Source of the DNA: Antedon mediterranea
Lineage: Eukaryota; Animalia; Echinodermata
Assembly: GCF_964355755.1 (NCBI RefSeq)
Contig: NC_092679.1
Span: 11,391,432-11,455,431, forward strand
Direction: 5' to 3'
Length of the DNA: 64,000 nt
Part shown: piece after piece, positions 3,421 through 30,447 of the stretch
Layout of the letters: the number at the start of each line of letters is the position of its first letter
How positions within the stretch are numbered: position 1 is the first letter of the stretch
Notes under the pieces: model-generated
What the model saw: the letters and a program-made list of their open reading frames with translations, nothing else
Told to the model about the DNA's origin: nothing
The model's database searches: none
Made by a program: the position numbers and the translations under genes

Positions 3421-4304
3421 TTAACACTTTGACTGCCAAATACGAAGATCTTCGTGTTTCGCGTTTTTTTACGAAATCCGGTAGATAGGTTAATTATTGG
3501 TATATACTATAAATATGGACACTATGTTCGGTCTGGACCGTCAATATTTTACTATTTGAAAGTAACTAATCTGGTTACGAACGACTGTCAAAATGGTACC
3601 TGTCGAAATAACATACACCGCGCATAACAGTAGCGCGTCGAGTGATTGCTTGGCGCATTGTGTATCGGTCACGCGCTAGCTATGCCGCCGAAGCATTAAA
3701 AAGGTTTTTGTGGATTGGCATGTTTGTTTGCTATCTGAATAAAAAATAATCGAGTCATTTTCAATATGAAGTCATTATTTTTATTATTGTATGTACAGTA
3801 TACCCTAATTGTTTTGGTGTTTCATTGTAAGTGACCGAGTTTCACACAACAAACTTGTTTAGAAATGGTATGGACATTATCATCAGTTTACTAGCTAGGC
3901 TAGCCTAGTCGTAAAACAGTTCCGGACCAACTTTAGGCCTGGTTAACTAGGCATGATGGGTTTACTATGTGGATTTTGCCGAAACATTAATGTAAGATTT
4001 ATGATTTATAAAATGTAATACATTTTTTACAAAAAGTGAATTATTGCTAGGCCTAAAGTTAGCTAGGCCTACAGTAGGCCATTACATTTTTCAGTTAATA
4101 ATAATATTGATATACAGATAGAATAGGCCTAGAGGCTAGGCCTAAATATTTTCATAAAACATGCCTATTTTTTTGCATATTAGTTAAAAAAAAAAATTAA
4201 TAACTATATTAGATTACACGTTTATAAACATACAATGTTTATACCAAGTTTGATGGTCATGTGTTATTGAATTTTCCAGTTACATCATTTATGCACATTT
4301 AATT
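3421..4304 (+). mobile_element. piggyBac-like non-autonomous element, left portion (may resume at about 8114-8740)
   Basis: Begins TTAA|CACTTTGACTGCC, typical of piggyBac-type termini. The ccaagttt..gttacatca.ttatgca motif at about 4243-4297 recurs at about 8322-8377. No matching right terminus found. Confidence 0.35.
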
Positions 4305-5643
4305 TACTCTAGTAGCTAGATCAACTTTCGTATGCACTTTGAGGTCCAGAGAATTCGACTTCAGAAATTGGTTTAGGGTGGTCAAACAATCATTTTTGGC
4401 TTGGTTACACATTTTGAAAATGTGGCGAAAGGTCAAAAGGTCAGGGTCAAAGGTTATAAGATCAAACACCATTATGTCCTTAAATCTCGACAACCACTGG
4501 TCACAGCGAGGTAATTTTGGTCTCAAATTGATCAGAAGGTATACATTCATATTCAGTCTAATGAAACATTTTAGTCGAAAATGACCGGAAATGCCATTTC
4601 TGACCTTTGACCCATAAACCAGGGCATGTCTGTATCTCCGTAACTATTGACCGTAGAGACTTGAATTTGGGCTCAAATTGTTCGAAATATACATTTAGTT
4701 ATTTGTTACACATTTTGAACAATGTTACAAAAGGTCAAAAGGTCAAGGCCAGGGGTTATATGAATAAACACAAATAGGTATTTGTATCTCGGCAACCACT
4801 GGTCACAGCGAGTAAATTTTGGTCTCAAAATGTTTAGAAGCTATACATTCATATTCAGTCTAATGAAACATTTTAGTAAAAAATGACCGGAAATGACATT
4901 TCTGACCTTTGACATACATACCAGGGCATCTTCTTATCTCTGTAAGTACAGGTCGTAGAAACTTAAATTTAGTATCAAATTGTTAGAAATACACATATTT
5001 ACATTCATTCTAACAGAAAATTTGGATAAAAGATGATCATAAATACTATTAATTACTAATCTTTTAAATGAAAAACATATCTACCCAACTTATCATTAGA
5101 CAGTAATGTTATGCAATAATTGATGCCTAATGATTTCATTATACTGTAGGAATTAAAACAAATCCTTTACTGTTTGTAATAATTGTAGGCCTACTTTTGC
5201 TTATAATAATGCTAGAAATTATTGTTTACCCCCGAACATTTTGAGAATGCTAGAAGTAATTTACTGTAGTTACCCGTATAAAAGCCTCGGGCATTTATTT
5301 ATTCAGGGAAGGCGTTTATTTTGTTGGGTGTAATAATGGTAACATGTATAATCAAAATAAATACACCCCAGATATATATATATAAATTCAAATTAATTAA
5401 TTAAATTTCAGTATATCACCGGGCGGTTTAGAATTAATGTTCTTTGCCTGATTTGTTTATATATATAAAAGTATCTCTTCGGAGATCCCGCCTCGTGAAT
5501 AAAAATACTGTATGTAAGATGAGGTCGTATCAATTTGATCTCTGGTGCGCGTGCGTACAACTGAGGACTAGTGCTGTTCCGCCGTACCACGCCGAGAATG
5601 TTAAAGAGTCGCTATCCAATCGAGTTCGAACAATACCATGAAA

Positions 5644-5715
5644 GCCCCAGTGGTCTAATGGTTAGGACATCTGCATATCAAGCAGGCGGTCCGAGTTCGA
5701 GTCTCGGTTGGGGCG
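5644..5715 (+). tRNA. tRNA-like gene, anticodon ATC (Asp), inside the repeat unit; copy 1
   Basis: 72-nt cloverleaf: acceptor GCCCCAG/TTGGGGC, D-stem GTCT/GGAC, anticodon stem TCTGC/GCAGG with loop ATATCAA, T-stem CCGAG/CTCGG with loop TTCGAGT, discriminator G. A box TGGTCTAATGG, B box GAGTTCGAGTC, and TTTTT 2 nt downstream. Confidence 0.75.
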
Positions 5716-6011
5716 ACTTTTTCTCATTCTCACAGATTTCCTCATCTTTATCGTTTCAAATTAATTAATTAAATTTCAGTATATCACCGGGCGGTTTAGA
5801 ATTAATGTTCTTTGCCTGATTTGTTTATATATATAAAAGTATCTCTTCGGAGATCCCGCCTCGTGAATAAAAATACTGTATGTAAGATGAGGTCGTATCA
5901 ATTTGATCTCTGGTGCGCGTGCGTACAACTGAGGACTAGTGCTGTTCCGCCGTACCACGCCGAGAATGTTAAAGAGTCGCTATCCAATCGAGTTCGAACA
6001 ATACCATGAAA

Positions 6012-6083
6012 GCCCCAGTGGTCTAATGGTTAGGACATCTGCATATCAAGCAGGCGGTCCGAGTTCGAGTCTCGGTTGGGGCG
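6012..6083 (+). tRNA. tRNA-like gene, anticodon ATC (Asp), inside the repeat unit; copy 2
   Basis: Identical to 5644-5715, 368 bp downstream. Confidence 0.75.
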
Positions 6084-9000
6084 ACTTTTTCTCATTCTCA
6101 CAGATTTCCTCATCTTTATCGTTTCAAATTAATTAATTAAATTTCAGTATATCACCGGGCGGTTTAGAATTAATGTTCTTTGCCTGATTTGTTTATATAT
6201 AAAAAAAATATATATTATATAATAAGAATAATAACGGGATTAAACCTCATTCTATCCTGGAGGAAGTACAATCATGTAATAAAAGGTATCGGAGACCACA
6301 ATAATAGACCAAGTCATTGTCATTATTACGTAACACTGTTGCATAATAGTTTTGAATGTCAACGACAAAACTTATACATATACACGTCTGTTCCCAGTGT
6401 AGATAATAAAACAATATATATTTCTGGAGATTTATTATCAATACCACTAGAAACTTTGACATGTTTTAGGTACTGAATGCATTGACAATAAAAGCATCAG
6501 AAGTTTATCATGATAAAATCATACTACAACACTGTACTACAGTACACAAGGGTGTTTTCAGGAAAGCTGGACATATTGTACAATAGTAATGAAACTATGT
6601 ATTGGCATTTAAAACTATGCAAAAGATTGTTGTCAAATTGTAGTTACAAACAAATAGATGATAGAATGAAGATCCATTATGAGTGCAATCGTGTCAGGAT
6701 AATGATGTGTCATTGTTTTATATCATTATACTGGCACCTAGAGGTGAAGATCCATTTAATGGAATCTATCACTTTTATTTTAAAAGACAGAAACATTTCG
6801 TTAAAAAGCATAAAGAGGAAAACGAATCATGTAAAGTACCTTTTATCAGTTGAGAAACGAAATACAATTATTAATATTAGAGTATTCCTTCAAATAAACG
6901 CCACCATTCCCTCAAATAGAACACCATGTGGAATAAACATGCCACATGCATTTACACAATAATTGTATCACGTCAACACATTTCATTAACTACCATAATC
7001 TACAATTTACCAAGCTTTTTGACATAATTTTATCACTTTTTGATATTAATTGTGCAGTATTTTTTCCCATCTAGGTGGTATTTATTTGATTATACATGTT
7101 ACCATATTATACCCCAAATAAAGATGCCTCCTTTCCCCCTAAAAACCATTTTGAACAATAAATGCCAGGGGCGTTTAATCGGATACATATGGCAAGTTAC
7201 TTCTAGCATTCTGAAAAGAACTGTTGAGCTTAACGTTTCTATCAAAATGTCCTCGGGGACAGCAATAACTAGTACTTGAAATTAAAACAATTTAAAGTAT
7301 CAGTTATTGCATAACATTACTGTCTAAGGATAAGTTGTGTAGATATGTTTTTTGTTTGAGACATTAGTAAGAGTATTTCTGTTCATCTTTTAACCACATT
7401 TTCTATTACAATGAATGTAAATATGTATATTTCGAACAATTTGATACCAAATTTAAGTTTCTACGACCTGTACTTTATGAGATATGAAGATGCCCTGGTA
7501 TGTGGGTCAAAGGTCAGAAATGGCATTTCTTATCATTTTTGACTAAAATGCCCCATTAGATGGAATATAAATGCATGCCTTCTGAACATTTTGAGACCAA
7601 AATTGACTTGCTGCGACCAGTGGTTGCCGAGATAAAAGTACCTTTTTTATTTGTTCAAATAACCCTTGACCTTGATTCTTTGACCTTTTGTAACATTTTT
7701 CAAAATGTGTAACAAATAACAAAACATATATTTCGAACAATTTAAAACCAAATTCAAGTGTCTACGACCAGTAGTTACGGAGATACATACATGCCCTGGG
7801 TTGTGGGTCAAAGGTCATAAATGGCATTTCCGGTCATTTTTTACTAAAATGTCCCATTAGACTGAATATAAATGTATACCTTCTGATTAATTTAAGACCA
7901 AAATTACCTCGTTGTGACAAGTGGTTGCTGAGATTTAAGGACATATTTATGTTTGGTCTTATGACCTTTCACCTTGACCTTTTGACCTTTCGCCACATTT
8001 TCAAAATGTGTAACCAAGCCAAATATGATTGTTTGACCACCCTAAACCAATTTCTGAAGTCAAATTCTCTGGACCTCAAAGTGCATACGAAAGTTGATCT
8101 AGCTACTAGAGTAATTAGGCTTTTTCATTCATTCATTCATCTTTTTATTTCAAAATATCATGGTGACATAACATATCCATAGAAAAAGAGAGAAAACAAA
8201 ATCTAAGTAAGAGCTCATTTTGCATACAAATGCATATTAAGTAGATAATTTGAATAATGTTGTACCTGTTACCTTGAAATTGCATTTAAAAATAGACATA
8301 CTGTATGCAGACATAAACTGTGCCAAGTTTCTTTGTTATGGAATATTGTACACTGAAGTTACATCAATTATGCATATTACTTAGCTAGACTTTTATTGGT
8401 TTTCAATTACATTAAAAACAAATATTTTAGCAGTTTTCATGAGCACGTAAAAATGTTTCAGGACATTACAGCTCCTACTTTTTTTTTAACCAAAGGTTTC
8501 ATTCTAAGAAAAAGTTAATTCACAATATATACAGATTATATTTTTACTTTTTTAAGACTTTAATATTGGCAAAAAAGCGATTTTGAAATTGGCTGAAATC
8601 GGCATTGAAATTGGGTAACATTTAACATAACTCAACAACCGGTAGTCCAATTTTAAAAGGTTTTTCTGTTCTGAGTTCCTCTCACCCAGCTGCATCTTAT
8701 AAGCACTGAATACAATTTTAAAATGTGTGTGCTATGCCTAAATTAGTATTATACGACATTTAGCGCGACCAAAGTAACAACACGATCAATATCAAATGCA
8801 ACCGATATGATTAAAAACAGCGTACTAGCTTCATAACGCAATAAATCTGTGGGGCAACTTTGTGGTGGGGTAACTTTGTGATAGGGTGACTTTGCGTTGG
8901 GCCGACTTTGCGTTGGGGCGAGTTAGGCTAACTATATGAATATGATGTCTGGTTACTAGGGGTAGCGGGACGATTCGGCCCGGAGACAATTAGGCACACT

Positions 9001-14074: not shown

Positions 14075-16865
14075 TTGTTGTTGCCTTGCTGATGCTTCTG
14101 TCTTTCCATATCTTGTGCATTAAACACATTGATGATTTTGCTATTGCCGGGACGACGTTTGATCTCAATGGAACATCCGCCCATGGTTTGAAATCATCGA
14201 ACCAAGGAAGTTAAAGTGGTTGACAACTTCAATTAATTGGTTTCCTGCATGATCATTTTCAGCATACCTGATATTATTTAAAGTTCTGCCACCAATAGAT
14301 ATTCCGCTATTGCAGTTTTATAGAGCCAATCTCATAATATATTCTGCATAGACATTAAATAAGTTTGGAGACAGTATGCAACCTTGTCTCACCCCTTGTT
14401 TTATTTTAAACCAAGTACTGTCGCCGCATGCAGTCCTCATAGCAGCTTCCTGGTTATCATATAATGTCCTGAGGAGTTCTACTACATGTCTTGGAAAGCC
14501 CATTGCTATTAAAACATTCCAGAGTCTTTGATTCTGGACAGTATCAAAAGCTTTTGATCAATAAAGCACATATATATAGCGGACGGTTAAATTCAATAGC
14601 TCTTTCCATTATATTTCTAATATTTGCTATTTAGTCTCTTGTACCTCTTCCATCCACAAAACCTGCTTGTTCTTGAGGAATTTCACGACGAATGTATTGT
14701 TTAGTCCTCTCAACAATTATTTACAGCATAATTTTACTCGCGTGTGATATCAGAGAGATAGTTTTGTTATTGTTTTTGCATTCTCTTGTATCTCCTTTCT
14801 TGGGGAGCGGTATAAATATTGATCTAGCCCAGTCAGTTGGCCAGCTCTTATCGGTCCATATCAAGTTACATAGATTATGCATTAAAGTGATACCTTCATC
14901 CCCTGTCTCCTTAAGAAGCTCAGCTGGAATATCATCATATTCCGGTGTTTTCCCATCCTTAATTTTCTTTATTACAAATTCCACTTCTGATCTTAGTATA
15001 TTTGGCATGTCATGTTGATCTACCTCCATTGCTTTTATAACTTGGTCTGAATATTTACTATCATACAACCTTTGACAATATTCTTTCCACCTATCCTTGA
15101 TTTGGTGACTCTCAATTAGAATCGTACCGTCCCCATCTTTAATAACATTTAATTTTACAGCCCTCTTGCCAGTAATTTCTTTTACAGCTTTGAAGAAGTC
15201 TCTAGAATGATTGGTAACGAAATGCGATTCAACCTCTCTGCATTTTCTTTTAAGGAAAGGTCCGTTTATCTTGTCTAGTAACACGTTGGATACTTCTACT
15301 AAGATGTTTATATTGACTGCCGTCTCTCTCACTGTGTAAACCATTTGCTTTTATTTGCAGCCTCTCATCTGCCAGTGCAACCACCTTGTCCGATATCCAA
15401 GGGGCTCGGCATTTCTTTAGTTTTGGTAAATTTTTCCGAGCTGCTAATGAGATTGCATTTTTTGTCAACTCCCACAATTCATTCTGTTTCCATGTTTTTT
15501 CCTTTTTAAGAATTACTTTAAAAGAATTTCTGACTCCAGCTTGATATTGGTCATTTATTTGTTTAACATCATATCTGCGTGGTAGAGCGTCTCGTTTTAC
15601 TATCTTTAGTTTGCAACGGATTTCAGCAGTTAAAAGTTGGTGATCTGAGTCGCAGTCTGCTCCTGGGTACGTTTTTGCCACTTTGACACTTGATCTCCAC
15701 CGATGTATAATCAAAATGTAATCTAGGCCTATTTGATTTCGGTAATTTCCATCTGGTGATATCCAAGTAGGCCTATATAGTCGTCGTGGGTGCTGTGGAA
15801 ATAATGTATTTGTTAAAACCAGGTCATTCTCAATGCAGAAATCCACCAGTTTTTCACCTCTCTCGTTAGCATGGCCAAGCCCAAACCTTCCCATTGCATG
15901 ATTCTTCTCCAGGTTACTTCCAACTTTGGCATTAAAATCACCCATAATAATAACAATGTCTCTATTTGGGGTTTTATTAATAGTTTCTTGGAGTTTTGGT
16001 AAAAGTAATTAATTATCTCCTCATCTACTGAAGAGGTTGAAGCATACACTTGAATTATTGAGATATTGATTGGTTTTGCTTGAAGACGAATGGATATAAT
16101 TCTGTCACTGATTGGGTTATATCCAAGAATAGATTTTGCAGATTGTCTTGACATTATAAAACCAACTCCATTACGCCTTAGTCTATCTGAGCCAGAAAAG
16201 TACACAGTGCATCCATCATCTGTTCTGAAATGACCTTTCCCAATCCATCTGTCTTCTGATAAGCCACATATCGGAATTTTGCATCTATTCAATTCTCTCT
16301 GGAGAATGTGCAGTTTGCTAGGATCAGTCATACTTCTTACATTCCATGTTCCGGTACGCAAGTTATGTCTTAAATTAATTTTTTCCTTTGTTTCATTCCT
16401 TTCATCAGCCTGTGGAGCGTCATTACAGGAACTTCCGTAGGAAAACAGTTGTTGCCCATTACTTTCCCCTCTGGGTCCAGAGGTATCACCTTGGTATGCC
16501 AGGCTGGCGACTACCCCACTATTTGAAGACTTCATCATTTAGGTTGGGAAAAAATAGTGAAGTGGGTTCCCGTTTCCTTCTTCACCAACAGTAGTCATCT
16601 AACTAGACTCTTCTTGCCAGCTATTGTCTATAAAGATCATTTGCCTGCCAAAATATATTTATCCATCAACGCTGTTGTCCATTGACGGCCACTTTTAACA
16701 TAATTTCGTCTGTTCAGGATGTGGCTGTTACCAACATTTTTACTGCTAAAACATTGCTTGCCGTTGACCAATCCCAAACAAAGTATGGCAGAGGGCGTCC
16801 ATCGCCGACTAACTGTGGTTGGTCAGCACCAGTTGCGTTTCGGTCATCCCGGATGGAAGCCCCTT
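14075..16865 (-). mobile_element. Degenerate RTE-clade (BovB-like) non-LTR retrotransposon: APE endonuclease plus RT, frameshifted and internally deleted
   Basis: ORF pieces 15813..16538 (GTWNVRSM, NGVGFI, SDRIISIRL), 15250..15945 (MGDFNAKVG, DCDSDHQLL), 14721..15344 (IPAELLK, WPTDW..IFIPLPKKGD) and 14318..14503 (GVRQGCILSPNLFNVYAE). Confidence 0.9.
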
Positions 16866-16904
16866 GTGATGTTGTAAAATTAGATTAATATTAAGATATA
16901 AACC

Positions 16905-19900
16905 TTTTTTTTCTTTTTTTTTATTATTCATATTTCATACAGAGAAAAAAAAGAAAAAAAAGGAAAAAATAAACAAAAAGACGTGTCTTTCTATAACAAG
17001 CAGTAAAAAAGATTAATATTACAATAAATTAATAAAGTCTACCCATTGTTTCTCAAAATCAGATTCTCCATTTTGCCTTGCAATATACCTTAACATCATT
17101 AAATAATTACGTAAATAAATATTTAAAGCCTTAATACTTGGCAAAGTTTTACCAATTCTACATTTATAAATTAAATACTTTGTAAGAATAATAATTGTAT
17201 TAACAGAAAAACATTGTGAAATATCTCCAAACAAAAGCGAATCAATTGTAAAAGTTATTTTTTTAAAGGAAATACTAATTTTGTGTTCTATATTTGACCA
17301 TAGTGATTTTACATATTTACAGCTTACAAACAGATGAGGAAGTGTTTCAGGTACATCACAGAAAGTACATGCTTCATTTTGTCGAATACCAATTCTTGTC
17401 AAAAAAACATTTGTTGCAATTATTCTATTATTTATTCTATATTGGAACCATTGTTCCAAAACAAATTTGGAAAGGACGCAGTCAAGGCGGTTTTAATATG
17501 GTTCAAATAGAAGATTTTTTTGTGTGACAGTTTGTCTGTCACATTTAAAAGGAAGTTTGTACATTTGTTTCAATTCCTCATCTGTTTTATTGACATTAAT
17601 TTTTTCTTCCCATTTTCTCATACTTTTCGGTCTGACAAAAATATGTTCTTTAAATTTGTTGTAAAAAGCTTTACACCCTGTTGGATTTTTAATAAAAATA
17701 TCTAAATGAAAAGGAATTATTGGTGCTTGCAGTTTAGTTACTATGTTTTATTGAATTAATTATACCTTGGTACTGTAAAAAATTACATTGAATATTATAA
17801 TGTTTTTTGAAATGTTCCCATGACATAAAAGATTTTTTTTTCTGAATGTAATACATCGTTAATATAAACTATTCCCCCTTCATACCAATTTTTAAAAAAC
17901 ACTGGCCTATTGGCAACTTTTATTTCGTTATTTTCCCACAAAAATATTCTTGGGATATCTATATTTGTTTCTGGGTAATTACTTTGATTCAGATTATTCC
18001 AGGCAGTTACAACATCATTCCAAAAGGCATTCCTTTCAGAAGTTAAAAAAACACTTTTTTCCGATATTATACCACTCATAAGAGGAACAAAACAATTAGA
18101 AAGAGATTTCCATTTACCCGAAGAAAACATGTATCTCCGGATCCATGTTAACTTTAAGGACTGAAAAAAATCTTCTATTTGAACCATATTAAAACCGCCT
18201 TGACTGCGTCCTTTCCAATTTTTAAAAAAACACTGGCCTATTGGCAACTTTTATTTCGTTATTTCACCACAAACATATTCTTGGGATATCTATATTTGTT
18301 TCTGGGTAATTACTTTGATTCAGATTATTCCAGGCAGTTACAACATCATTCCAAAAGGCATTCCTTTCAGAAGTTAAAAAAACACTTTTTCCCGATATTA
18401 TACCACTCATAAGAGGAACAAAAAAATTAGAAAGAGATTTCCATTTACCCGAAGAAAACATGTATCTCCGGATCCATGTTAACTTTAAGGACTGAAAAAA
18501 ATCTTCTATTTGAACCATATTAAAACCGCCTTGACTGCGTCCTTTCCAAATTTGTTTTCTACTTATTTTCTCACTAGATTTCCAAATAAATTTATAAAGT
18601 AATGTATTGAGCTTTGCAACACAATTTTTATTGGGGTTTGGTATGGTTAGAATTATGTGATTTATTTTTGGAATAATTAGAGATTTTACAATAGTAAGCC
18701 TTCCAAGAGGCGTGAGATATCTTTTTGACCATTATGCTAGTGAATTTTGTATAGATGTCATAAATTTATTATAATTTAGTTCTGGCATTTGAGTGTAGTC
18801 AACACAATACATGATGCCAAGAAGATTAAAGTGTCCATCATCTGGGCAATAGAAATCTTTTTCTTTACAAATTCTTTCTTTACAATGCGTTTTGCTCCCA
18901 ATCCACATAGCACATGTTTTTTGGTAGTTAACCTTTAAACCAGATATGTTGTAAAAACTATCTAACTCTTTAGGCCTAAATGCTTCTAGCATACTATTTT
19001 CTGAGCCATCAATGTATATAGTGGCATCGTCAGAGTACATACTGATTTTAAACTCGGTGCCTTCTACATTAATACCTTTCATGTACTCATTTGATCTGAT
19101 ATACATAAAATAAATAAATATGGTGAAAGAGGGTCGCCTTGACGACATCCTCTTTATATATTAAAAAAAGGTGTTGGGTAACCATTTACAAGAACACTTG
19201 ATTTACATTCGTTATAAAAAATGTCAATCCACCTTAAAATATCATCACCAAAATTATAGTTTAAAAGGACTTTTTTCATAAAAGTGTGGGAAACCGTGTC
19301 AAAAGCCTTTTCAAAATCAATAATTAACACAAGACCAGGAATATTACGTAATTTGGTGTAAACTAGGATGTCGTACATTGTTCTAGTACACTCACCTATA
19401 TATCTACCCTTCATGAAACCTTGTTGGTCCTCATTAATTAGAAGATTTAAAACACATTTTATTCTTTCGGCTATACATGATGAGGCAATCTTATATACAA
19501 CATTTAAAAGTGAAATAGGTCTCCAGTTTTGAATCAATTCACGTGGTTTATCAGATTTAGGTAATAGTGTTATTAAGCCCTGTGTCTGACTTATTGAGAG
19601 ATGACCTGTATCGAATGCATAATTTAATTAGTTAACAACAAATTGTCCCAGACTTTTCCACAAAAATTTAAAAAACTCTACTGAAAAACCATCTGTGCCA
19701 GGACTTTTGTTATGTTTCATTAATTTTGTTTGAGGACTTTACTAACTTCTTCAAATGTGTGTTTTCCTTCTATTTTTAATTTATCACTTTCAGCTAAAGT
19801 TGTTTAGCACGCTTTAAAACCTCCTCAGCCTTGGCTGTATCAATAGGGTGTTCACTGTATAAATGTTTATAGAAAATATATATGCTTTCTTTGATTTCTA

Positions 19901-22611
19901 TTTGGCTATTAACTAAAAGAGAATCGTTTTCTTTTATGCAGGTTAAGAAAATTTTTGATAGATTTTTTGCCGTCTTCACACCACTGTGCCCTTGATCTAA
20001 TTATAATTCCTGCTATCCTGATCTTACGTATTTTCTCTAACTCTTCTTTTTTAACCGTCAAATCTTCTAATACATATATTTATAACTGCAAAGTTAACGA
20101 ACAAAAACCTCACATAAATCACTTTAAATCGGTATATGAGAGGTATAAAGAAATTGAAAAGTACATTGTTTTTAAAAATAGCTAGGCTGTTGATATTTAT
20201 GTATAAAAATAGCCATATATGTTTTGTAACTTGAAAAGGTTACTTTATTATTATTTTGTATTACTTTGTAATGTAACCAAGTTAAGTAATGTATACTGTT
20301 TTATGAAATATAGAAAATAAAATAATAAAAAAAAAAAAAGAAAAAAAAAAAGATTTTTCTTTTGGATTTAAATTAAAAATATTTTCCAGAATTTCCTTTA
20401 CTAGTTTCTTTTCGATTTCATTATTTTTTTTGTTTTTTTGGCTAGAGTATTTTAGTGTTACGCTTCTGATTTCCATCAAAAGTACATCTAAAAAAAGTTG
20501 ATTATTTATACTAAACTCTCGGACATCCTCGTGATTTTCTTTCTTTGAATATTGATCGATAATTTGTTTTATTTTTTCTTCTACAATAGTGCAATAATCC
20601 ATATCCTTAAGTAATGAGTTGTTAAACTTCCAAAACCCAGTACCTTTTTTAATATCGTTAAATTGTATTGAAAGTAGAACAATTGAATGGTCGGTCCTAT
20701 ACCCCGGCTTAATAATACAATTTGTAACTACAGTAAATGCGTAAGGTCTCTAGAGATTAAAAAGAAATCTAATCTCGCTTGTTTGAATGGATTTTGTTGT
20801 TTCCATGTATAGGATTTAGTATTCCTGTTTTTTTCTCGCCAAATATCAATTAGATTGTCATTTTGAATTAGTTCTATAACTTGGTTACATGCATTCGGAT
20901 TATTGGTGTTTGTATAGTTTAGGTAATCGACATTAGGATTTAAAACCAAGTTCCAGTCGCCACAAATTATAGTATAAAGGTTTTCAAAATTATGTATGAT
21001 ATCCTCAATATCAGTATAAAATTGTGGGTTATCTCTATTTTGGCCATATAAATTAATTAAAGTAATACGTGTCTCTTTAATTGTTATGTCAAGAGCTACT
21101 AAGTTTCCAATTGTATCTGTTTTTTGATTATGAACTTTAAATTGCATCTTATTACCAAACAATATGGCCGTTCCTCTAGAATTTGAGGTCCCAGGTGAAT
21201 AAAAAAACATCATATCCCCATTCTGCCCTAATGATATTTTCACTTTCTTTATTTATATGAATATCCTGAAGACAATATATGGACCATTCTTTCTCTCTTA
21301 AGTATTCAAAGACATCACATCTTTTCTTTTTGTCTCCTAAACCTCTACAGTTAATTGTAAAAATGTTTAACTCAGTCATGGTAATTTAATATATTTATTA
21401 CAATATGCAAAAGAACAGACTTAAATAACTTTTTATTAGAGCGATAAGACACACAAAAAAAATAAATAAAAAGAAAAAAACAACAAAAATAGAGAATAAT
21501 CATTCGCATGTTCAGATAGTTCGGGTAGTATGTTAATGATATATTCTCAAATCTAGTTGGGCTCATCCTTACTAGCTGCGCATCTCCTGCGTGTTCTTGA
21601 TTTCTTACTGTGGACAGTTTGGTATCGGATGCATGGTGGAAGTAACATCGGTATGAACGCAAATTTAACATCTGATTTTGCTTTTATATTTTCTAGATGC
21701 GTATCTTTTAATTTCTTTCTCCTTGCTGAGAGGTCGTCCGAAATAAAGATTTTATGTCCGTTCAACGTGTTGTTTTTCAGCGTTTTTGCAGTATTTGAGA
21801 GTATGTGCAATTTATCTCCATATCTCAATAGTTTCACGTGGATCGGTCTTGGATATTCTTTTCGTGATTTTTGTTTCCGTGCTGGTGTACGGTGTGCTCG
21901 CTCTATTTCAATGTCTACTGCTTCTTCAAGCTTCATGTGGTTGAAAAGGATAAACCTGACTACGTCCTCGCTTGACATGTTGTCTCCTGCACCGTAATTT
22001 TCCGGAACGTTATGAAACACAATATTATTCCTGCATGATCTATTCCTTAAATCGTCTATTTTGTTTTCAAGCCTTACAATTGCTTGTGACCTATGTTCTT
22101 CTGACTCTTTGTTCTTTAATTGTTCGGTAAAGGTTTGGTCTACCATATTTAATGACGTTTTTAGCTCCTCTATACTTTTCTTATTTGTAACATTTACCTC
22201 TTCTACTTTATTTAATCTGTTTTCTACCTTTGATATTTTTGTTTCCATAGAGTCTAGTTTATTTAGAATTGTATCTAGCTTTGAATGAATATCGTCAAGC
22301 GAAACAGGTATGCATTCCTCACCTGTGTTTTATTCCCGCCTTTCCTACTATCGGCACCTTTGTTCTTTTGTTTACTACGATCGTCAGGCGCTACCGATCT
22401 CAGGTGATACGTTATATTTTCCTGTTTATCCTGCTTACTTTAGCTATAGATTTTTCCATTTAGCTGATCTTGATAGTCAGGATGTTATTGAAATGTACTT
22501 ACAGTTTATTGCAGTCGACAAGACGATTTAGGTACAAAAACTGCTATATATATTTTTTTTTCAGGAGCTCTCGATATGTACACGTCTTACTCCATAGCTA
22601 GTCAGACGCCC
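16905..22611 (-). mobile_element. Near full-length but decayed Tx1/L1-clade LINE (ORF1, APE, RT, zf-RVT)
   Basis: ORF1 21553..22248 (coiled coil, RNNIVFHNVPE, IERAHR, RPIHVKLLRY). APE 21176..21379 and 20728..21243 (TINCRGLG, CLQD, CGDWN, ARLDFFL). RT 19154..19537 (NWRPISLLN, DFEKAFD) and 18732..19148 (YSDD). C-terminal CxxC..H..C in 17019..17459. A-rich tail at about 16905-16925; L1-like 5' end GGGCGTCTGACTAGCTATGGAGTAAGACGTG. Confidence 0.9.
20070..20351 (+). mobile_element. 5'-truncated 3' end of another Tx1/L1-like LINE inserted antisense in the element above
   Basis: YIYNCKVNEQKP..YKEIEKYI resembles the Tx1 ORF2 C-terminus (cf. YLIYKCRI..LP in 17019..17459). Followed by a short UTR, AATAAA and poly(A) at 20327-20351. 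Confidence 0.6.
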
Positions 22612-23149
22612 TCAATGTAAGTTGGTGGAAGACAAACTAAACAGAAGGTAATAAAGACAAGTTTATCTTTGTACATCTAATAGATTAGCATCTATTATAA
22701 AACTCTTATCATAGAAAAAGTGACGTTTTAATTTTCCCTCGTAATATATTTCACTTTTTATGTGTTTAGAAAATCAAATTACCAATCGTCAGTCAAAATG
22801 AAACTGACTGTCTTTGAACATCTAATAGATTAGCAGCTATTAAAAAACTCTAATCAGAAAAAAAAAAAGAAAAGCTTTTTGATAATCCCTCGAAATATAT
22901 TTCTCTTTCTATGTGTTTAGGAAATCAAATTAACAATCGTCATTGTAGAAACATAGCAGGAATTTTTTTCTTTTTTTCTTCTATTCCTTCCTTTTCATTT
23001 TCTTTTCTCTTTCTCCTTTTTCTCTTTTTCCTTCATTCCACCCCCCCCCCTTTTTTTCTCTTTTTCTTTTTTCTCCCTTCCCTTTCCTTTCCTTTTCTCT
23101 CTTATCTTTTTTATTTAAAAAAAAAAAAAATCTTATCTTATCTTATTAC

Positions 23150-24120
23150 ATATAAATCATGCATCTATTCAGTGTGCTTTATTCTCAGCTTATCTCCTGT
23201 CGATTGTGGCCTATGTGGGTTTATTTTCACGATCATTCAGTTTTTGATCAACATAACATATTTTTCTCGTTCATTCTTCGTTCTATCTCTAGATATCCCT
23301 TTTATATTATGATGTCCTGTAAACCTCATAACTGCTTCCCTTTCCTTTACTTCTTCGAATACAATTTTTATTGGTCTGTTCTTTTTATCTTCTCTTTTTC
23401 CTATTCTTATTATTACTCTTATTATTTTTTTTCGAGATGGTACTCTTTGTCTTCCAACATTTCTTGTATTTTTACTAGATCTTCTTGCATTCTTTTAGTA
23501 GTATCCTCTATTTTAGATTCAACTATATCATATACAATCAAGTTCATTTTTCTTCTTTCTTTGTCTTCGTATTCTTTGAACATATCTTCAAGAACTACTG
23601 AAACTTGTTTATTCTCTCCTATTTTATTCATCTCTGGCGTTACTCTATTTACCTTCTCATCTAATTTATCTTGCTTAGTTTCTAAATCTTTAATTCTTTC
23701 ATTGAACACATTAACCGTCTTCTTATTTTGTTCTTCCATATTTTTATTTACTTTTTTCTCTACATCTGATATTCTTTTTTCCACTTCATTTACTCTCTTA
23801 TTAATTTTTATGTCCAACTCTTTAATTTGTATTTCAAGATCTCTATTTCTTTGTAGCAACCTCTTTTCTATTTCCTTAATTCTGTCTAGAATTACCCAAC
23901 CCCGTGTTACTTCATTACATCAGACTCGAGCTACTTTTTGGTCTGGGACGTTTTGCTTTATGTTTTTTACTCATAGATTTATCGCTTACATTCTCATCCC
24001 CAGTAGGTGAAGGATAATCATCTTGACTGCTATTTCTGTTATCACGATCGTCAGGCCTGTCATTATGTTCAATAAATTGATGCATTGTTTTTTGTGCCAT
24101 TATGCTAGGCCTAAGTCTCT
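23150..24120 (-). mobile_element. Decayed ORF1-like (coiled-coil) fragment of a CR1/L2-group LINE
   Basis: ORF 23422..23859 is a charged coiled coil followed by ERRKMNLIVYDIVE, typical of LINE ORF1 proteins. Stops on both sides. Confidence 0.55.
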
Positions 24121-24244
24121 GTATGTAACCTGGTAGGTGTTAATTAGTGTTTGATAAACAAATTTGTCACACTCAATAGCCTACTAGGATGAAAGGAAAA
24201 GTGGCAAGCTTATTTGTACCAATAAACCTATATCATGGTAAATG

Positions 24245-26725
24245 GTAAATTGGAATGGTATTACCGCCAGTGGCGACGTAAGTCAGAGTGCCAAACTTCT
24301 CGAAACTACTCTAACCAACATTTTAGATAAACATGCTCCTTGGAAAAAACACAGGGTACGTAAAAAAAACAGCTCCTTGGCTCTCTGGTGATGTAATTGA
24401 AAATATGAGAGAAAGAGATAAACTCAAAAGAGAATGTAAACATTCTAAAAATGAATCACTCTGGAAAAGGTACAGAAAGTATAAAAATATGTGCAATAAA
24501 TTAATACGTAAAAGTAAAGCTAATTTTATTCAAGAAAGTATAAAAGAAAATAAAAACGATGTAAAAAAAACATGGGATACCATAAGATATTATATCGTCA
24601 AAAAAGAAAACTCAAACTATTCAAACAATTTGCAATGATAATGGCGATGTCCTCTATAAAGCCAAGGACATCGCAAATGAAATTAATACATTTTTCTCAA
24701 ATATAGGTTTAAATCTTGCATCACAAATACATGAGCCGATAAATGATATAAATTATGATGAAATCGATGCTTTCACCGAAAATAATTTTGAATTTGAACA
24801 CATCACATGTGAATTTGTATATAAATACTTAAATAATCTTTCAAAAAACAAAGCCACTGGTCATGATAACTTACCACCGGGCATTCTAAAACTGTCTGCC
24901 CCGATTATATCCCCAACAATTACAAGAATCATAAATCACTCCTTCACAACATGTAAATTCCCAAATACGTGGAAAATAGCAAAGGTCACGCCAATTTTTA
25001 AGAATGGTGAAAAAACTAACCCTAATAATTATCGTCCCATTTCCGTCCTACCTATACTTTCAAAAATAATTGAACGAGTCGTTTTTAATCAACTTTATGC
25101 TTTTTTGAATAATAATAATCTGTTATGTATAAATCAATCAGGTTTTCGACAATCATACTCAACATCTACTGCACTTACAAAAGTGACGGCAGACTGGTAT
25201 AGTGCAATAGACGAGGGTAAGCTGGTCGGAATCTGTTTACTAGATTTTAAAAAGGCCTTTGATACGGTAAACCATAACATACTATTAAGCAAATTGAGAC
25301 TTTATGGTTTAAGTAAATATGTTTTAAAATGGTTCGAGAGCTATCTGTCTGAGCGAAAGCAATTCACAAATGTAAATAATACATTGTCTGACTATACACA
25401 CATCCAATGTGGAGTGCCTCAGGGGTCAATCGTGGGCCCACTTGCTTTCCTCTTATATATAAATGACCTATCGAAAGTTGCAAACAAATGTAAAATAAGT
25501 ATGTATGCTGACGATACTATAATTTATTGTTCTTCAAAAAATGAAAATGAAATATACCAAAGTATAAATGAAGAACTTATACAAATCGACGATTGGCTAA
25601 AAAATAATAAATTGAGTCTAAATGTCTCTAAATCCGAGTTCATGTTGATCGGATCGACAAACCGATTGGCAACCACCAAAGAAAAAAATAGATCAGTTAA
25701 TATAGATAACGATGTTGTACCACGCGTTCGATTTTGCAAACATCTCGGTATCATAATAGACGAACATTTATCATGGAAAAATCAGATTGAATACATTCGA
25801 GGTAAAGCTCTAAATGGATTGGGTATGCTTAGACGATGTAGCTATTATTTTCCACAAAACATATTAAAACATATTGCAAACTCTATTGTAATACCTTACT
25901 TGAGCTATTGTAACATAATTTGGGGAAATAGTAGTCAAACTCTAATGAAAAGAGTTCAAACTATCCAAAACAGAACAGCTCGAATCGTGTGTGGTCTAAC
26001 ATGGGACACACCTAGTAGTGAGGCACTAAGGCAAATTAATTGGTCACCTTTATTTTATCAAGATAGATATGAATGTTGTATGGTTATATATAAGGTTTTG
26101 ACAGATAATGCCCCACCTTACCTAAATAATGTATTTACATTCAATGATATAAATTATAATCTAAGGCACAGTGATACACATCTATTCATCCCAAAGCCAA
26201 AAACCGATTTTAAAAAACGAAGTCTGTCTTATCGTGGAGCAATTATATGGAATAGTCTCAATGTTGATACCCTTCCAAATTCAGTTAAGTTGTTTAAAAC
26301 GTATCTGAAAAATGCATTGTAAACAAAATGGTATGGTAATCTACGATCTAGGCCTACATCCAACTTTTAAAATGGCTAAATACTATGTAAAATGTGTGTT
26401 TTATCACTATTATTTTAAGGTAAATGAAATCCAAAAGATTTATTATGTATTACAGTTGAATCCCCATGAATTATACACTTCGATAAGGGTTTCCGTTTAC
26501 ACGGGAAGTACCGGTATGGTGTACCCTAAAAAGAGGTGTCAGATGAAGGGGATTCTGCTGTAATTTTGTTTCTTTTCAATTTCAATTTTTTTCGTTTCTG
26601 TTGTATTTATATGGTGTTGATTTCTTTTTGTTTTGTAATACAGTATCACGAACTTGTGTAAAAACAATCAATATTGATTGAACGAGTTGTACTGCACATC
26701 AGTCTCGTGTCTAAATAAAGTTTAT
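24245..26725 (+). mobile_element. 5'-truncated CR1/L2-group (Crack/Daphne-like) LINE with RT domain
   Basis: APWLS..RERDKLK (24333..24638), then a frameshift, then a frame that appears open from about 24640 to 26322 with NYRPISVLP, LDFKKAFDTV, GVPQGSIVGP and YADD. 3' UTR ends in AATAAA at about 26714. Confidence 0.9.
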
Positions 26726-26854
26726 ATATATATCATCAAGACAGAATGATTTAAGCAAAAACTTATGTCCTGCCTTGGCTAGCAAAATGTAAAAACCGCT
26801 GTGTGGTTGAAGGCCTAGCAAACTATACCTCTAACTCCTTCTCCAGAATTGTAT

Positions 26855-27254
26855 TGTAACGTTTCCCTGCCTCGTTGTTAGCGGGTTCGGCGTCGGTGTT
26901 ATTCCGACGAAGATAAGTTAAGTAAGTACAGTAATATGACGTACAGAAGCACAAATTACAATCTGTTACGAATTCAGGAGGTGTTTTATTCTTTTCACAA
27001 CTGCTGATACAGTACACAATAGAAATGATATTCGTATGCCCTACCTAATAATTGCGTGTAACTTCAGGTACAAAGTAATTCCTAGTATGGATTGGATCAG
27101 AAAATTTTAAGCCTATGACTCTTCCTGTTCAAGGTTGGAGCTCCACTCCTCACATGTGGGTTTCTTCCTCCTCAGATTACAAATCCACCCACCAATCAGA
27201 AGCCTTCTAAGAGGACTATTCCATAACAATAAGAGGGGTATCAAAATCGTTACA
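26855..27254 (-). mobile_element. 3' LTR of a Gypsy-type LTR retrotransposon
   Basis: TGTAACG...CGTTACA termini (400 bp). Polypurine tract GGGAGCGGGG on the minus strand at about 27258-27267, just upstream. AATAAA on the minus strand at about 26984. Confidence 0.7.
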
Positions 27255-27972
27255 CTGCCCCGCTCCCAGAACGATTCGTCCCCTGAATCGTCAATAAAAA
27301 AAATAAAACGAAATCAAACAAACAAAACTTAGACAGAGGGTCTACTATGCCTCTGCCGCATTCCTTAAGGGATTAAAAAAAAACAACTAGCTAATCCAAC
27401 AAGTATTCTTCTGTCACTTCAATTCCTCCACTAGGCTAACACTTCCGTCTCGGTAATGTGTGAGTTTCTTCTTTTTGATTACTTTAATCTTGGAGAAACC
27501 GTGCAGGACGGTTCCTCTGTCGCCTTTTCGGATAGCGGGATGAGTTATCTGGTTCGGGTTCTGCCGAGCCTGACGAGTCTGGTACCTCAGGGATAATAGA
27601 TGTGTGCCCTGTATTTGCATTTGGATCTGGTTCTGTATCGACATTCCCTCCCCCCGGTGTAGCCCAGCACGTTCCTGTAACGTTTCCCTCATAGAACTTG
27701 AGGAGGTCGAAGTGAACTACCCGGTACTTCCCTTTGGGACTTAGCTGGATCCGGTACGTTACTTCCGACATCTTTTTGCAGATCAGGTACGGACCACGCC
27801 AACGACTCTCCAGTTTTGGAGAGACTCCTTTTCTCTTGGTTTTGTCGTACATGAGTACAAAACTTCCCTCGTTCAAGGAAGGTCCACCTGCCAATCGGTC
27901 ATATAACCGCTTCTGCCTCCGGGCGCTCTTCTTCAATGCTTCTCGCGCACGTACAGCATCAAATCTGCGCAC
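27255..27972 (-). mobile_element. Gypsy integrase C-terminal (GPY/F module) fragment and 3' untranslated region
   Basis: ORF 27484..27972: RQKRLYD..KLESRWRGPYLI..VTYRIQ..VVHFDLLK..RYPKR.R.RPARF. Confidence 0.85.
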
Positions 27973-28427: not shown

Positions 28428-30447
28428 GATGCTAGTCAAGTCGCCCCATCGCAAAGTCGCCCCATACAAAGTCGCCCCTTACACAGTCGCCCCATCGCAA
28501 AGTCGCCCCGACACAGTCGCCCCATCGCAAAGTCGCCCCATCGCAAAGTCGCCCCAACGCAAAGTCGCCCCATCGCAAAGTCGCCCTAACACAAAGTCGC
28601 CCCATCGCAAAGTCGCCCCAAAACGTTAAAAAAATAGTTTAAAAGTGCGTAAAATGTCGCAATGATACACAAAATAACACGGAACGTGTAGGCATAAAAG
28701 GGGAAGCCCCGCCATGTAGTCTCAGGTCACACGATCATCCCCCATCATCATGAGAGGAAACCCCGTAATTACTCCGCCGTTGTCGCACTACAAACAACGC
28801 ACCATCTGAAGATGGGGAAACCCCGCCGGAGTTTTACGATATCAGTCGCGTTCGAAATCGGTCGCGTTTAATTTTGGTCGCGATAAAATGATGTTATACG
28901 ATCTAGATTATTTTTACTTTGGTCGATAAATATTTATTATTATTAGGCCTATATTATATTAATAATTGATTTTTGTTTTTATTTTACAGGTCTATGATGA
29001 GAAAGATGTGTGCCTTAAAAAATGACAATTTGTAAACATAGTTTAAGATTATAGTATTATTCAGCATAATGTCATTTAACAGTACATAATTATTTAAATG
29101 TGAAATATTTTATTGGGAACGTAGGCTACGTCTGTAACTTTTATTTTATATGCAACAAATTACGTAAAACAATTTATTTATAAACATTCAGTTTACTAAT
29201 AGTATTACAATGAACATTGATTATAAGCCTGGAAAGGCAATCCCATCATTATATCCATTATAAAATTGCATCATATCACCACTATATGTCGTAAATGATG
29301 ACGTGTGTGTATGTATTCGTCGTACGTCCGTGTACGTATTATTCCGTGCATCTTCACTGTCTTGTTTAATTTGAAATTAAATAAACACCCGATATGAGGA
29401 TATTTATTAGGCATGAGATAATTAGAATGTTCTATAACCAAAAGGGTTGAAAAGAATTTCTTCAGTAAAATGATCATTCTGCTGTTGAATAAAAAGCGAC
29501 TCGCAATCTGAAACATTCTCTGAAACCAATCGGAGCTGCGCCTTCTGGTATCTGTTTCCTCACAGCTGCTACGACGTCTTTCTGCTGCCCGTCGGGGATT
29601 CCCCTTTTTAAAAAACACGCACAAGATACGATGGTTTTCCATGGTCAAAATGTAGCGTACGATCATATCGGCGCGGCGATGAAATCCTTTTTTTTTATTT
29701 CTTCATTTTGAAAAGTCATAATAAAATTAAATAACAATAGACACATAACTTGTCAATAAATGCAAAGTGATCAATAAGTAGCCTATAACACTATTGTCTT
29801 ACAACTACTGTAAATCTATACGAAGGCCTACTACACATTTATACACTTATTATATTATCATAAAAAATGAGCTGGTAGGTTGAATAAAGATTCGTAATTG
29901 TGGCTCTGGTAACTAATTTTAAAATCATATTAAATTAACATTTTCGAAACTATAAATCAGGGATAATCTTTTTAGAACTTTCAAACAAGGAAGGGACTGT
30001 TTTTTTAATGATTTCTAAAAAGCACATCACTCCATTAAAACCTGTAAAATAAAAATAAAAATACAAATTATGTATATAATAGGATAAACATTATAATGTA
30101 AGCCTAGGCCTATACGACATTTAGCGCGACCAAAGTAACAACGCAATCGATATCAAACGCAACCGATATGATTAAAACAGCGTACTACTAGTATTAGTAA
30201 TAGCGGCGGCGCTTCATAGTCATACCGAAATAAAACCGTGGGCGACTTTGCGATAGGGCGACTTTGCGATAGGGCGACTTTGCGATGGGGCGACTTTGCG
30301 ATGGGGCGACTTTGTAATGGGGCGACTTTGCGATGGGGCGACTGTGCCGGGGCGACTTTGTTTTGGGGCGACTTTGCGATGGGGCGACTTTGTATTGGGC
30401 GACTTTGTATGGGGCGACTTTGCGATGGGGCGACTTGACTGGATCCC
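28428..30447. mobile_element. MULE/Foldback-like non-autonomous element with tandem 16-17-bp subterminal repeats
   Basis: Left agtcaagtcgccccatcgcaaagtcgcc.. (about 11 units, to 28620) mirrors right ..ggcgactttgcgatggggcgacttgact (30239-30440). No transposase ORF and no clear TSD. Confidence 0.8.

Follow-up and report, generated by a model that had tools for sequence, protein, structure and literature searches.

Tandem arrays of short non-coding units are known from several retroelement systems. Penelope-like elements (PLEs) of the Naiad group are described as targeting (TA)n, lacking hammerheads and inserting in tandem and inverted arrangements, and MRC1 as a non-autonomous head-to-tail PLE (PMC8557442). 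For animal non-LTR retrozymes, the literature proposes mobilisation by PLEs through RtcB-closed circles, with two processing sites per cycle (PMC7229834; 10.64898/2026.07.22.740005). Retrozyme monomers are reported to carry the same ends as the products of the tRNA splicing endonuclease TSEN, and RtcB closes them in vitro (PMC7229834). TSEN itself leaves a 5'-OH and a 2',3'-cyclic phosphate, and RtcB circularises metazoan tRNA introns (10.1101/497545; PMC4536317). The unit described below bears on how ribozyme-free Penelope-type elements and tRNA-related tandem repeats build their head-to-tail arrays.

Here, we describe a 368-bp unit in a 64,000-nucleotide window, the whole stretch of DNA analysed, from the echinoderm Antedon mediterranea. 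The array is a recently inserted copy of a plentiful non-coding tandem repeat, which with good confidence belongs to a class of abundant tRNA-bearing tandem non-coding retroelements. Its best complete explanation, put forward tentatively, is a Penelope-copied repeat whose unit is released as a circle by tRNA splicing.

A young tandem array and its abundant family

Identity at a period of 368 is exact over 5387..6201 of the + strand (815 bp), giving 2.21 identical head-to-tail copies (5387-5754, 5755-6122 and a partial copy, 6123-6201); none of the listed contigs spans the locus, and the copy count is that of the assembled window. A first-pass annotation of the same DNA had claimed about 2.2 identical copies that start on the left after a (TA)n tract and end on the right inside the unit's own TA tract, and both points hold. 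The unit is non-coding with a GC content of 42%, and no GIY-YIG domain was matched in the 14 scanned of the window's 44 open reading frames. The array is inserted in an older host element (4304..8114), which is not part of the unit and is bounded by 821-bp terminal inverted repeats that are 88.7% identical.

A low-complexity 10-bp word resembling a target-site duplication, TATATATAAA, lies on the + strand at 5377..5386 on the left and 6194..6203 on the right. Eight nucleotides of the right word overlap the unit's own TA tract, an overlap that is likely to represent priming microhomology. This internal tract (5458..5467, + strand; repeated at 5826-5835 and 6194-6201) is where family copies break off. 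The 79-bp terminal repeat of the array begins with TTC and ends in the TA tract, with no tRNA inside. Alleles seldom seen in the family occur in both window copies, which a single template would explain: a T at 5525 (below 1.2% of depth in 4/4 runs) and four extra bases near 5511-5515.

The unit is present in 20 of 23 listed public sequencing runs from eight studies, seven of which runs were examined contig by contig. Its summed contig depth is 69-169x that of the left flank, itself repetitive, in 4/4 runs, a ratio that does not give copy number. The family contains subfamilies. Given this abundance, a single-locus duplication, which the first-pass annotation had named as an alternative, is not upheld; nor is an assembly artefact at the tandem joint, since head-to-tail joints occur in other samples too (7/7 distinct runs examined). 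In one run (X3), at least 56 contigs exit the unit at the TA tract and at least 65 do so some 30 nt short of it, through a diverged form of that stretch. Two opposite-strand joints were seen, in one contig each and with orientation not resolvable, and none at the window locus.

Four runs from other organisms (X10, X11, X12 and X15) contain the unit at depths of 3-225, with letters nearly identical to the family majority; they are read as trace DNA rather than as horizontal transfer. A further run (X8) covers the flank at the same unit-to-flank ratio as the others and was consequently treated as DNA rather than RNA. Relatives among viral contigs numbered zero. The only metagenome match proved to be an unrelated tRNA-derived head, and the only prokaryote match a chance match in coding DNA.

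Head-to-tail or partial tandem insertion, a fixed 3' end in a microsatellite and a variable 5' end together give a footprint that fits a non-autonomous Penelope-type element, and the repeat was likely copied by a Penelope-type reverse transcriptase. The organisation is not that of a tRNA-derived SINE: the tRNA is internal, a T5 run directly follows it and the copies are tandem.

Ribozyme searches of the unit were empty. Rfam ribozymes gave no match at E values up to 10, HDV-like, pistol and twister ribozymes gave none, and a relaxed type I/III hammerhead descriptor gave 0 matches on both strands. A hammerhead, including one of type I in each unit, was therefore rejected, in keeping with the initial view that no canonical one is present. 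The only CUGANGA in the unit lies at 5561, and a 12.5% variant affects its first base. A 9-mer at 5411 resembles loop B of the hairpin ribozyme; this candidate was rejected because the 9-mer has no partner strands and sits within ordinary stems. Rfam matches to DUF2693 and mir-1277 were weak, far under their thresholds, and were set aside. Together with the abundance in public runs, these searches support the earlier proposal of a retrozyme-like tandem element that is dispersed and abundant and in which no ribozyme can be recognised.

The tRNA module and its antisense segment

Each full unit embeds a tRNA, as first annotated: ARAGORN finds one at 5644-5715 and another at 6012-6083, both with anticodon ATC, and the Rfam tRNA score is 57.9 bits. 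The first cloverleaf (5644..5715, + strand) is tRNA-Glu-like, with an A box at 5651-5661, a B box at 5695-5703 and the anticodon AUC; the second occupies 6012..6083 of the same strand. All four stems are intact, which is more than promoter function requires. Unlike in a functional tRNA gene, body and anticodon do not belong to one isotype: AUC is called as Asp, and the body is Glu-like (four of its five BLAST matches, all partial tRNA matches and in phage records only, are annotated as tRNA-Glu).

A T5 Pol III terminator follows at 5718..5722 (+ strand), the sole run of at least four T on the unit's + strand, and recurs after the second copy at 6086-6090. The role of Pol III promoter that had been suggested for the tRNA is supported as likely. 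Human Pol III is reported to show no read-through at T5 in vitro and some in cells (PMC3141230). Because the T5 lies immediately after the tRNA and read-through at T5 is limited, most transcripts should be bare tRNA-like RNAs.

Positions 32-38 of the anticodon loop (5675..5681, + strand) contain a palindrome at 32-35 (5675-5678), and the predicted TSEN cuts fall at 5680|5681 and, in the second copy, at 6048|6049. A Watson-Crick palindrome at 32-35 arises in 4/64 possible loops with U33, or 12/64 if G:U is allowed; it was spotted post hoc. As A32 is already present in one of two aligned phage tRNA-Glu sequences, a single substitution, at position 34, would be enough to create it. In run X3 the loop carries no variant of at least 2% among those listed, which over seven positions is not significant alone. 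Elsewhere in the arm, a 15% family variant (5670 T>A) disrupts pair 27-43 and a 26% variant (5686 G>A) strengthens the anticodon stem. The palindromic loop, the T5 terminator and the duplication-like 10-bp flanking word are all absent from the first-pass annotation.

The antisense segment (5594..5631, + strand) is complementary to the T arm, the acceptor 3' strand and the trailer (5695-5731). The pairing claimed at the outset is confirmed as a helix of 34 predicted pairs, 30 Watson-Crick and four G:U, nearly all with P >0.9. A primer-binding-site reading of the segment was rejected, the match being to the genomic trailer rather than to a CCA end. In a read-through RNA, the pairing partner of tRNA copy 1 would be the second copy of the segment (5962..5999, + strand).

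Folded as a circle, the + strand monomer reaches -112.5 kcal/mol, an energy attained by 0/150 dinucleotide shuffles (z -5.8) and 0/100 tRNA-preserving shuffles; the minus strand is less exceptional (z -4.0), and the assignment of + as the structured strand stands. Removal of the 38-nt antisense segment leaves the + strand no better than shuffles (z -0.74, 40 shuffles), indicating that all of the excess folding energy comes from this single helix. Of the smaller stems proposed earlier, 5516-5524/5740-5748, 5409-5426/5488-5510 and the C(UUCG)G hairpin are all present in the circular minimum-energy fold. The 5543/5583 stem is absent from that fold and is disrupted by a 33% variant at 5545; this middle part of the unit folds unremarkably (z -0.82). 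The left multibranched domain (5409..5510, + strand), which contains the UUCG hairpin at 5473-5486, has a z of -2.6 and no ribozyme match. A viroid-like quasi-rod has to be given up, since the fold is multibranched and its paired fraction of 63% compares with 60.6 +/- 3.1% in shuffles. The suggestion that cloverleaf and antisense helix exclude each other does apply to the monomer, in which forming the cloverleaf costs about 22 kcal/mol.

A predicted chimeric tRNA and competing routes

The tRNA module is predicted to have two roles: that of Pol III promoter and, in two-copy transcripts, that of a signal for tRNA splicing, which would free the unit as a circle. Pol III would start at tRNA copy n, sometimes pass the first T5 and terminate at the second; the resulting RNA would be 446 nt long and have tRNAs at both ends. 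In models of this RNA (5644-6089), the antisense pairs with copy n at its T arm, acceptor 3' strand and trailer, so that the 5' half of that tRNA is predicted to pair with the 3' half of copy n+1; the acceptor stem across copies has P=0.997. The antisense is thus predicted to force a chimeric tRNA, which together with a bulge-helix-bulge lies 20 kcal/mol below two separate cloverleaves, a gap that shrinks to 1.5 +/- 1.9 on scrambling the antisense (40 scrambles).

The palindrome at loop positions 32-35 lets the anticodon arms of the two copies pair with each other, and they are predicted to form a textbook bulge-helix-bulge at 37/38, in which a 4-bp helix with a 3-nt bulge on either side joins two outer helices. 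Both cuts would fall at 37|38, and the RNA would resemble a single pre-tRNA with a 368-nt intron (5681..6048, + strand), one full unit and the proposed circular RNA. This geometry, that of tricRNA precursors, is fully possible in the two-copy RNA at 4.3 kcal/mol above the minimum, with an equilibrium probability of 0.006 for the central helix; at -144.0 kcal/mol it ranks level with a chimera in which the anticodon hairpins stay local (-144.1 kcal/mol). The central helix consists of A-U pairs only and is paired throughout. Each of these features lowered yield in a fly reporter, and 16/16 fly intron tRNAs are reported to have C-G at that position (10.1101/497545); an A-U proximal pair is described as lowering splicing without abolishing it (10.1101/497545; PMC4536317). 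The natural metazoan tRNA introns cited in one account reach about 250 nt (PMC4536317), and the one predicted here would be 368 nt.

By analogy with tricRNA biology, TSEN would then cut, leaving hammerhead-like ends, and RtcB would close the intron into a 368-nt circle. The circle is predicted to hold a masked cloverleaf and a single anticodon arm and, for these reasons, would not be recut. A Penelope-type reverse transcriptase could take a nicked (TA)n target, annealed to the internal UA tract, as its primer and roll round the circle, laying down head-to-tail copies that end at the TA tract. Put more boldly, and with slightly less assurance than the explanation as a whole, a selfish retroelement may here serve as its own tRNA intron, one unit being circularised by TSEN and RtcB and rolled into TA repeats by a Penelope-type enzyme. 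No host tRNA-splicing route for such a mobile element was found in listings of open-access papers, and the antisense-driven chimeric tRNA with a bulge-helix-bulge, predicted in the two-copy transcript, is new. If correct, the route would make this a mobile element that is a parasite of tRNA splicing; it would supply 368-nt circles in nature and offer a compact layout for expressing circular RNA.

An unlikely alternative accepts the same element and chimeric fold and dispenses with the anticodon-loop cut. RNase P and RNase Z would trim the RNA to a stable linear form that ends like a tRNA and carries a terminal repeat of 72 nt; reverse transcriptase jumping from its 5' end to an adjacent 3' end would generate multimers. 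The cross-copy acceptor stem suits this account, and the local-hairpin chimera is as good as or better than the bulge-helix-bulge; transcription of Cassandra, moreover, is described as running from one small-RNA module into the following one, with a terminally redundant product (PMC10886601). However, A34 and the palindrome are left unexplained, the 815-bp insertion would require two exact jumps, and priming appears internal, at the TA tract, rather than at the RNA 3' end.

Similarly improbable is a scheme in which the tRNA has no role beyond that of a promoter, or is a relic, the antisense does no more than protect the RNA from being processed as a tRNA, and a Penelope reverse transcriptase copies long array transcripts, produced by Pol II or read-through as for MRC1-like elements, with no circle. 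The acceptor and anticodon stems are fully paired though a promoter needs neither, the 5686 variant improves the anticodon stem, and in Helenus, by the published description, the tRNA fold is mostly lost (PMC10886601). Such a scheme draws on the ribozyme-free PLEs and non-autonomous head-to-tail derivatives already described (PMC8557442), on a TATA-like word (5464-5471, + strand) overlapping the internal TA tract and on the T5 block to most Pol III read-through. It also accords with the variants at pairs with P >=0.9, of which 13/20 preserve the pair, near the 56% expected for transitions, variant linkage not being visible.

The first-pass annotation had suggested release of monomers through RNase P or RNase Z cut sites, which here would mean cuts in successive cloverleaves and 368-nt products. 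After RNase Z cuts, the antisense could splint the ends for ligation or template jumping. In keeping with this, the two terminal bases of the folded monomer 5716-6083 pair with the neighbouring positions 5977 and 5978, as at a nick in a helix, and only 16/368 cut sites have at least four stacked pairs on both sides. Compared with cutting by the tRNA splicing endonuclease, this route is nevertheless judged less likely, and is doubtful in itself, because, by prediction, the antisense disrupts the cloverleaf of a single copy, which these enzymes need, and favours the chimeric tRNA: two separate cloverleaves are 20-25 kcal/mol worse than the antisense fold. Both enzymes together would also excise the tRNA and destroy the unit, and 5'-phosphate/3'-OH ends are not known to be RtcB substrates.

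A very improbable reading is that of a satellite derived from a tRNA, or of a leftover SINE, that spread as DNA through unequal crossover, local duplication or transport within the surrounding inverted-repeat element, with the antisense a chance inverted duplication. In its favour, satellites have been described that derive from SINEs, as have tandem repeats related to tRNAs (PMC10702118), the array sits within a terminal-inverted-repeat element and one 38-nt inverted segment supplies the excess folding energy. Against it, the array is short, has a duplication-like flanking word and ends at a TA tract common to many other copies, the unit is far more abundant than the host element, and the helix has four G:U and no A:C pairs, with 4/4 variants above 10% keeping + strand pairing (joint p about 0.006, post hoc).

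Should the tRNA-splicing route prove false, the case for a new family of tandem retroelements that carry a tRNA and target TA would remain well supported.

Comparison with described systems

Helenus TRIMs are likewise described as non-autonomous retroelements with a tRNA-derived Pol III promoter, but carry the tRNA within LTRs, together with a PBS and PPT and 4-bp duplications in animals (PMC10886601); the window array does not have the TRIM organisation of TG...CA LTRs with tRNA, PBS, PPT and a 4-5 bp duplication. Closer in form are newt PolIII/TAN, OAX and Rana/polIII, reported as tRNA-related tandem repeats of 250-360 nt with no matching SINE (PMC10702118; PMC12054243). PolIII/TAN, compared here by description only, is about 360 nt long, derived from tRNA-Glu and transcribed in vitro (PMC10702118; PMC12054243). 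The tRNA-splicing route, if true, may account for such long-unexplained tRNA-related tandem repeats of animals.

The Naiad PLEs and Chlamys/MRC1 share with the unit (TA)n targets, the lack of a hammerhead, 5' truncation and tandem insertions; their inverted insertions may have a counterpart in the two opposite-strand joints, and MRC1 also resembles the unit in its multicopy head-to-tail arrays (PMC8557442). They differ in that the window unit has no ORF and that a tRNA module is not mentioned in the account given of them (PMC8557442).

Natural tricRNAs arise by a TSEN cut at 37/38 and closure by RtcB, and reverse transcription of circles yields concatemers (PMC4536317; 10.1101/497545). In these descriptions, however, they are introns of single functional tRNA genes, with no mobility described (PMC4536317; 10.1101/497545), whereas the 'intron' predicted here would be the element itself, drawn from two tandem copies.

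Schistosoma Sm-alpha and Sj-alpha are described as Pol III-driven, SINE-like tandem repeats in which each copy is transcribed from the one upstream and monomers are released at a processing site (PMC6765202). Theirs is a hammerhead (PMC6765202); the cut in the window unit would be made by the host tRNA splicing endonuclease. Animal non-LTR retrozymes, finally, are reported as non-coding head-to-tail units of 150-450 bp in many copies, with a GC content below 45-50%, to be set beside 42% here, and target duplications longer than 4 bp, to be set beside the low-complexity 10-bp flanking word (PMC7229834; 10.64898/2026.07.22.740005). The window unit differs from them in having no hammerhead and, in its place, a tRNA module with an antisense lock, its circle being a prediction; if that prediction is true, host tRNA splicing stands in for the retrozyme hammerhead.

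Array, tRNA module and monomer fold

The first-pass annotation described about 2.2 identical tandem copies of a 368-bp unit, which is borne out by an exact 368 period over 5387–6201 (2.21 copies, 42% GC; TRF concordant). A 72-nt tRNA-like gene (ARAGORN, anticodon ATC) lies on the plus strand of each full copy, at 5644–5715 and 6012–6083, with complete pairing in all four stems and intact A and B boxes. Its Rfam match scores 57.9 bits, tRNA being the sole family to reach the gathering threshold in the whole window. The tRNA body is tRNA-Glu-like, with a gapless alignment and four of five phage matches annotated as tRNA-Glu. In the D arm of 5644–5715, 17 consecutive bases are identical to two phage tRNA-Glu genes, a comparison made with phage rather than animal tRNAs. 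A functional tRNA gene is not a plausible identity for this module. The Pol III terminator T5 (5718–5722), directly behind the first tRNA, is the only plus-strand run of at least four T in the unit. A relaxed hammerhead descriptor found no match over the unit, as had been suggested for the canonical motif, and a ribozyme search of Rfam to E 10 returned only tRNA and weak noise.

The circular plus-strand monomer is predicted to fold at −112.5 kcal/mol (z −5.8), matched by none of 150 dinucleotide shuffles and none of 100 shuffles sparing the tRNA; the minus strand gives z −4.0 against dinucleotide shuffles. The main stems annotated earlier are genuine. The viroid-like rod is not retained, since the monomer fold is branched and its paired fraction (63%) resembles that of shuffles (60.6%). 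The folding excess is attributed to a helix of 34 pairs, four of them G:U, between an antisense segment (5594–5631) and the tRNA T arm, acceptor 3′ strand and trailer (5695–5731), because z drops to −0.74 when that segment is deleted.

Variants of at least 2% in the public sequencing run X3 were mapped onto this predicted fold. Within the antisense helix, all four variants above 10% (5598, 5612, 5627, 5701) preserve pairing, and the fixed mismatches are four G:U and zero A:C (joint p ~0.006 with the variants, post hoc), a pattern suggestive of selection on the plus-strand helix. Over all pairs with probability ≥0.9, however, only 13 of 20 variants preserve the pair, a fraction close to what transitions would give (56%). 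The top anticodon pair is disrupted by 5670 T>A (15%). With variant linkage invisible, no compensatory change is shown, and the suggestion of selection stays with the antisense helix.

Insertion site and family

The window is AT-rich and, among the 14 of its 44 ORFs scanned, carries several LINE fragments encoding APE endonuclease or RT, as well as a piece of an LTR-type integrase (14721–27972, 36948–39705, 52395–54647), a make-up pointing to an invertebrate animal; a GIY-YIG domain is absent from these 14. A 331-bp direct duplication (97%) occupies 17885–18553 within a LINE-type RT gene. The array is nested in an older element (4304–8114) with 821-bp inverted arms, 88.7% identical. This host element contains subrepeats of 302 bp together with a second, older inverted pair nested within it (5239–5373/7069–7217); it has no clear ORF. 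An identical 10-bp word occurs at 5377–5386 and 6194–6203, with 8 nt shared with the unit's own TA tract; though of low complexity, it can be read as a possible target duplication with priming microhomology. On the minus strand, 62260–62297 matches unit positions 5394–5429 at 84% over 38 columns, with a TA run nearby, and may represent a degenerate piece of a family copy. Dispersed 16-bp minisatellites (1385–1498, 8849–8919, 28438–28620, 30240–30436) share 13–14 bases with the tRNA 3′ end, probably by chance.

The unit is present in 20 of 23 listed public runs from eight studies, none recorded as RNA; contigs from seven distinct runs were aligned to it. Summed contig depth is 69–169-fold that of the left flank in four of four runs, a ratio that is not a copy number. 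Depths of 3–29 in runs of organisms D, E and F are read as trace DNA. Head-to-tail joints occur in all seven distinct runs. Run X3 places 7,288 contigs on the 368 bases, 630 of them <90% identical. At least 56 exit at the TA tract and run on in TA-rich sequence; these may partly be longer internal TA tracts, because the loose ends are short (median 13 letters). At least 65 exit ~30 nt before the tract by way of a divergent counterpart of that stretch, and never rejoin the unit (median 231 letters). Among the joints listed, two single X3 contigs join opposite strands. Both window copies carry two family-rare alleles and so share a single template or a single source array. One X3 contig skips 71 bases (5643 to 5715), nearly the whole tRNA body and one base short of clean RNase P/Z excision; slippage over the acceptor stem, by RT or during replication, might account for the skip. 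Near 5685–5695, runs X1, X3, X8 and X10 contain a diverged subfamily whose variable loop is 5 nt long and whose T stem differs, but which keeps loop positions 32–35 in its loose-end consensus (agreement ~0.6).

A candidate tRNA-splicing route

Modeling suggests, tentatively, that the unit may be released as a circle by host tRNA splicing. Pol III would initiate at one tRNA copy and leak past the first T5, producing a 446-nt transcript bounded at either end by a tRNA. A like arrangement has been described in Sm-alpha, whose next copy is transcribed from the upstream one (partial text of PMC6765202). T5 is marginal as a terminator in yeast (10.1101/2021.08.27.457903); human Pol III shows no read-through at T5 in vitro but detectable read-through in cells (PMC3141230, in part). 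In the modeled RNA (5644–6089), the first tRNA loses its 3′ half to pairing with the antisense segment, and the between-copy acceptor stem has probability 0.997. The anticodon loop reads A32 U33 A34 U35 C36 A37 A38, and the two anticodon arms could cross-pair because positions 32–35 are palindromic. The predicted arms (5 bp, 3-nt bulge, 4 bp, 3-nt bulge, 5 bp) match the bulge-helix-bulge definition of PMC10485636 and would place each cut at the canonical 37|38 position. Animal TSEN requires a complete mature tRNA domain (PMC10485636), which the two-copy chimera supplies in the predicted fold. Relative to a pair of independent cloverleaves, this chimera gains 20 kcal/mol, against only 1.5 ± 1.9 when the antisense is scrambled; ten variants tried left the ranking unaltered.

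TSEN would then cut both 37|38 sites, the predicted excised piece (5681–6048) being exactly one unit, and RtcB would close it, much as TSEN-generated ends are closed into tricRNAs (10.1101/497545; PMC4536317; both in part). Hammerhead-cut retrozymes share such ends (PMC7229834). The circle would escape recutting because its predicted acceptor stem is almost absent (probability near 1e-14), a protection paralleled in viroids and plant retrozymes, whose ribozymes are blocked (available sections of PMC7229834). Internal TA-tract priming, rather than terminator priming, fits a circle since it has no 3′ end.

Against this route, the bulge-helix-bulge fold lies 4.3 kcal/mol above the minimum and ties with a chimera retaining local anticodon hairpins. 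Its central helix has an equilibrium probability of 0.006, so the route depends on enzyme capture. In a fly reporter, yield fell with an A-U proximal pair and likewise when the helix was fully paired (10.1101/497545, in part). The palindrome, spotted post hoc, has a chance of 4/64, or 12/64 allowing G:U, and A34 alone is left to explain because A32 already occurs in one of two aligned phage tRNA-Glu. It is unlikely that a linear tRNA-capped RNA forms multimers by template jumps, and equally unlikely that the tRNA is only a promoter for long array transcripts that are then copied. Release of monomers by RNase P/Z with the antisense as splint is less likely still, although in the predicted fold the RNase Z site falls within an uninterrupted helix, as do just 16 of the 368 positions in all. 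Spread as a satellite at the DNA level is highly improbable.

Element class and known systems

By analogy, the family very probably belongs to the non-autonomous Penelope-type tandem retroelements, because its footprint (TA-tract ends and head-to-tail joints) matches Penelope-like elements (PLEs). In the available part of PMC8557442, Naiads are described with (TA)n targets, tandem and inverted insertions and no hammerheads, and MRC1 as a non-autonomous, multicopy head-to-tail PLE derivative. PLE dependence has been proposed for animal retrozymes (partial texts of PMC7229834 and 10.64898/2026.07.22.740005).

SINE identity was rejected, as was Helenus TRIM identity on comparison with part of PMC10886601. 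The eukaryote-like metagenome contig L001 carries, at 1485–1570, a head of tRNA origin that is unrelated to the unit and probably a SINE. The open-access literature searched contained no element using tRNA-splicing release. The mechanism is specific and cheap to test, and would, if confirmed, make the unit a new kind of element. Newt PolIII/TAN (~360 nt, tRNA-Glu-derived) resembles the unit in size and ancestry as compared by description (PMC10702118 and PMC12054243, in part). Animal non-LTR retrozymes and Sm-alpha work similarly, but the unit is not a member, its sequence lacking the hammerhead tested for.
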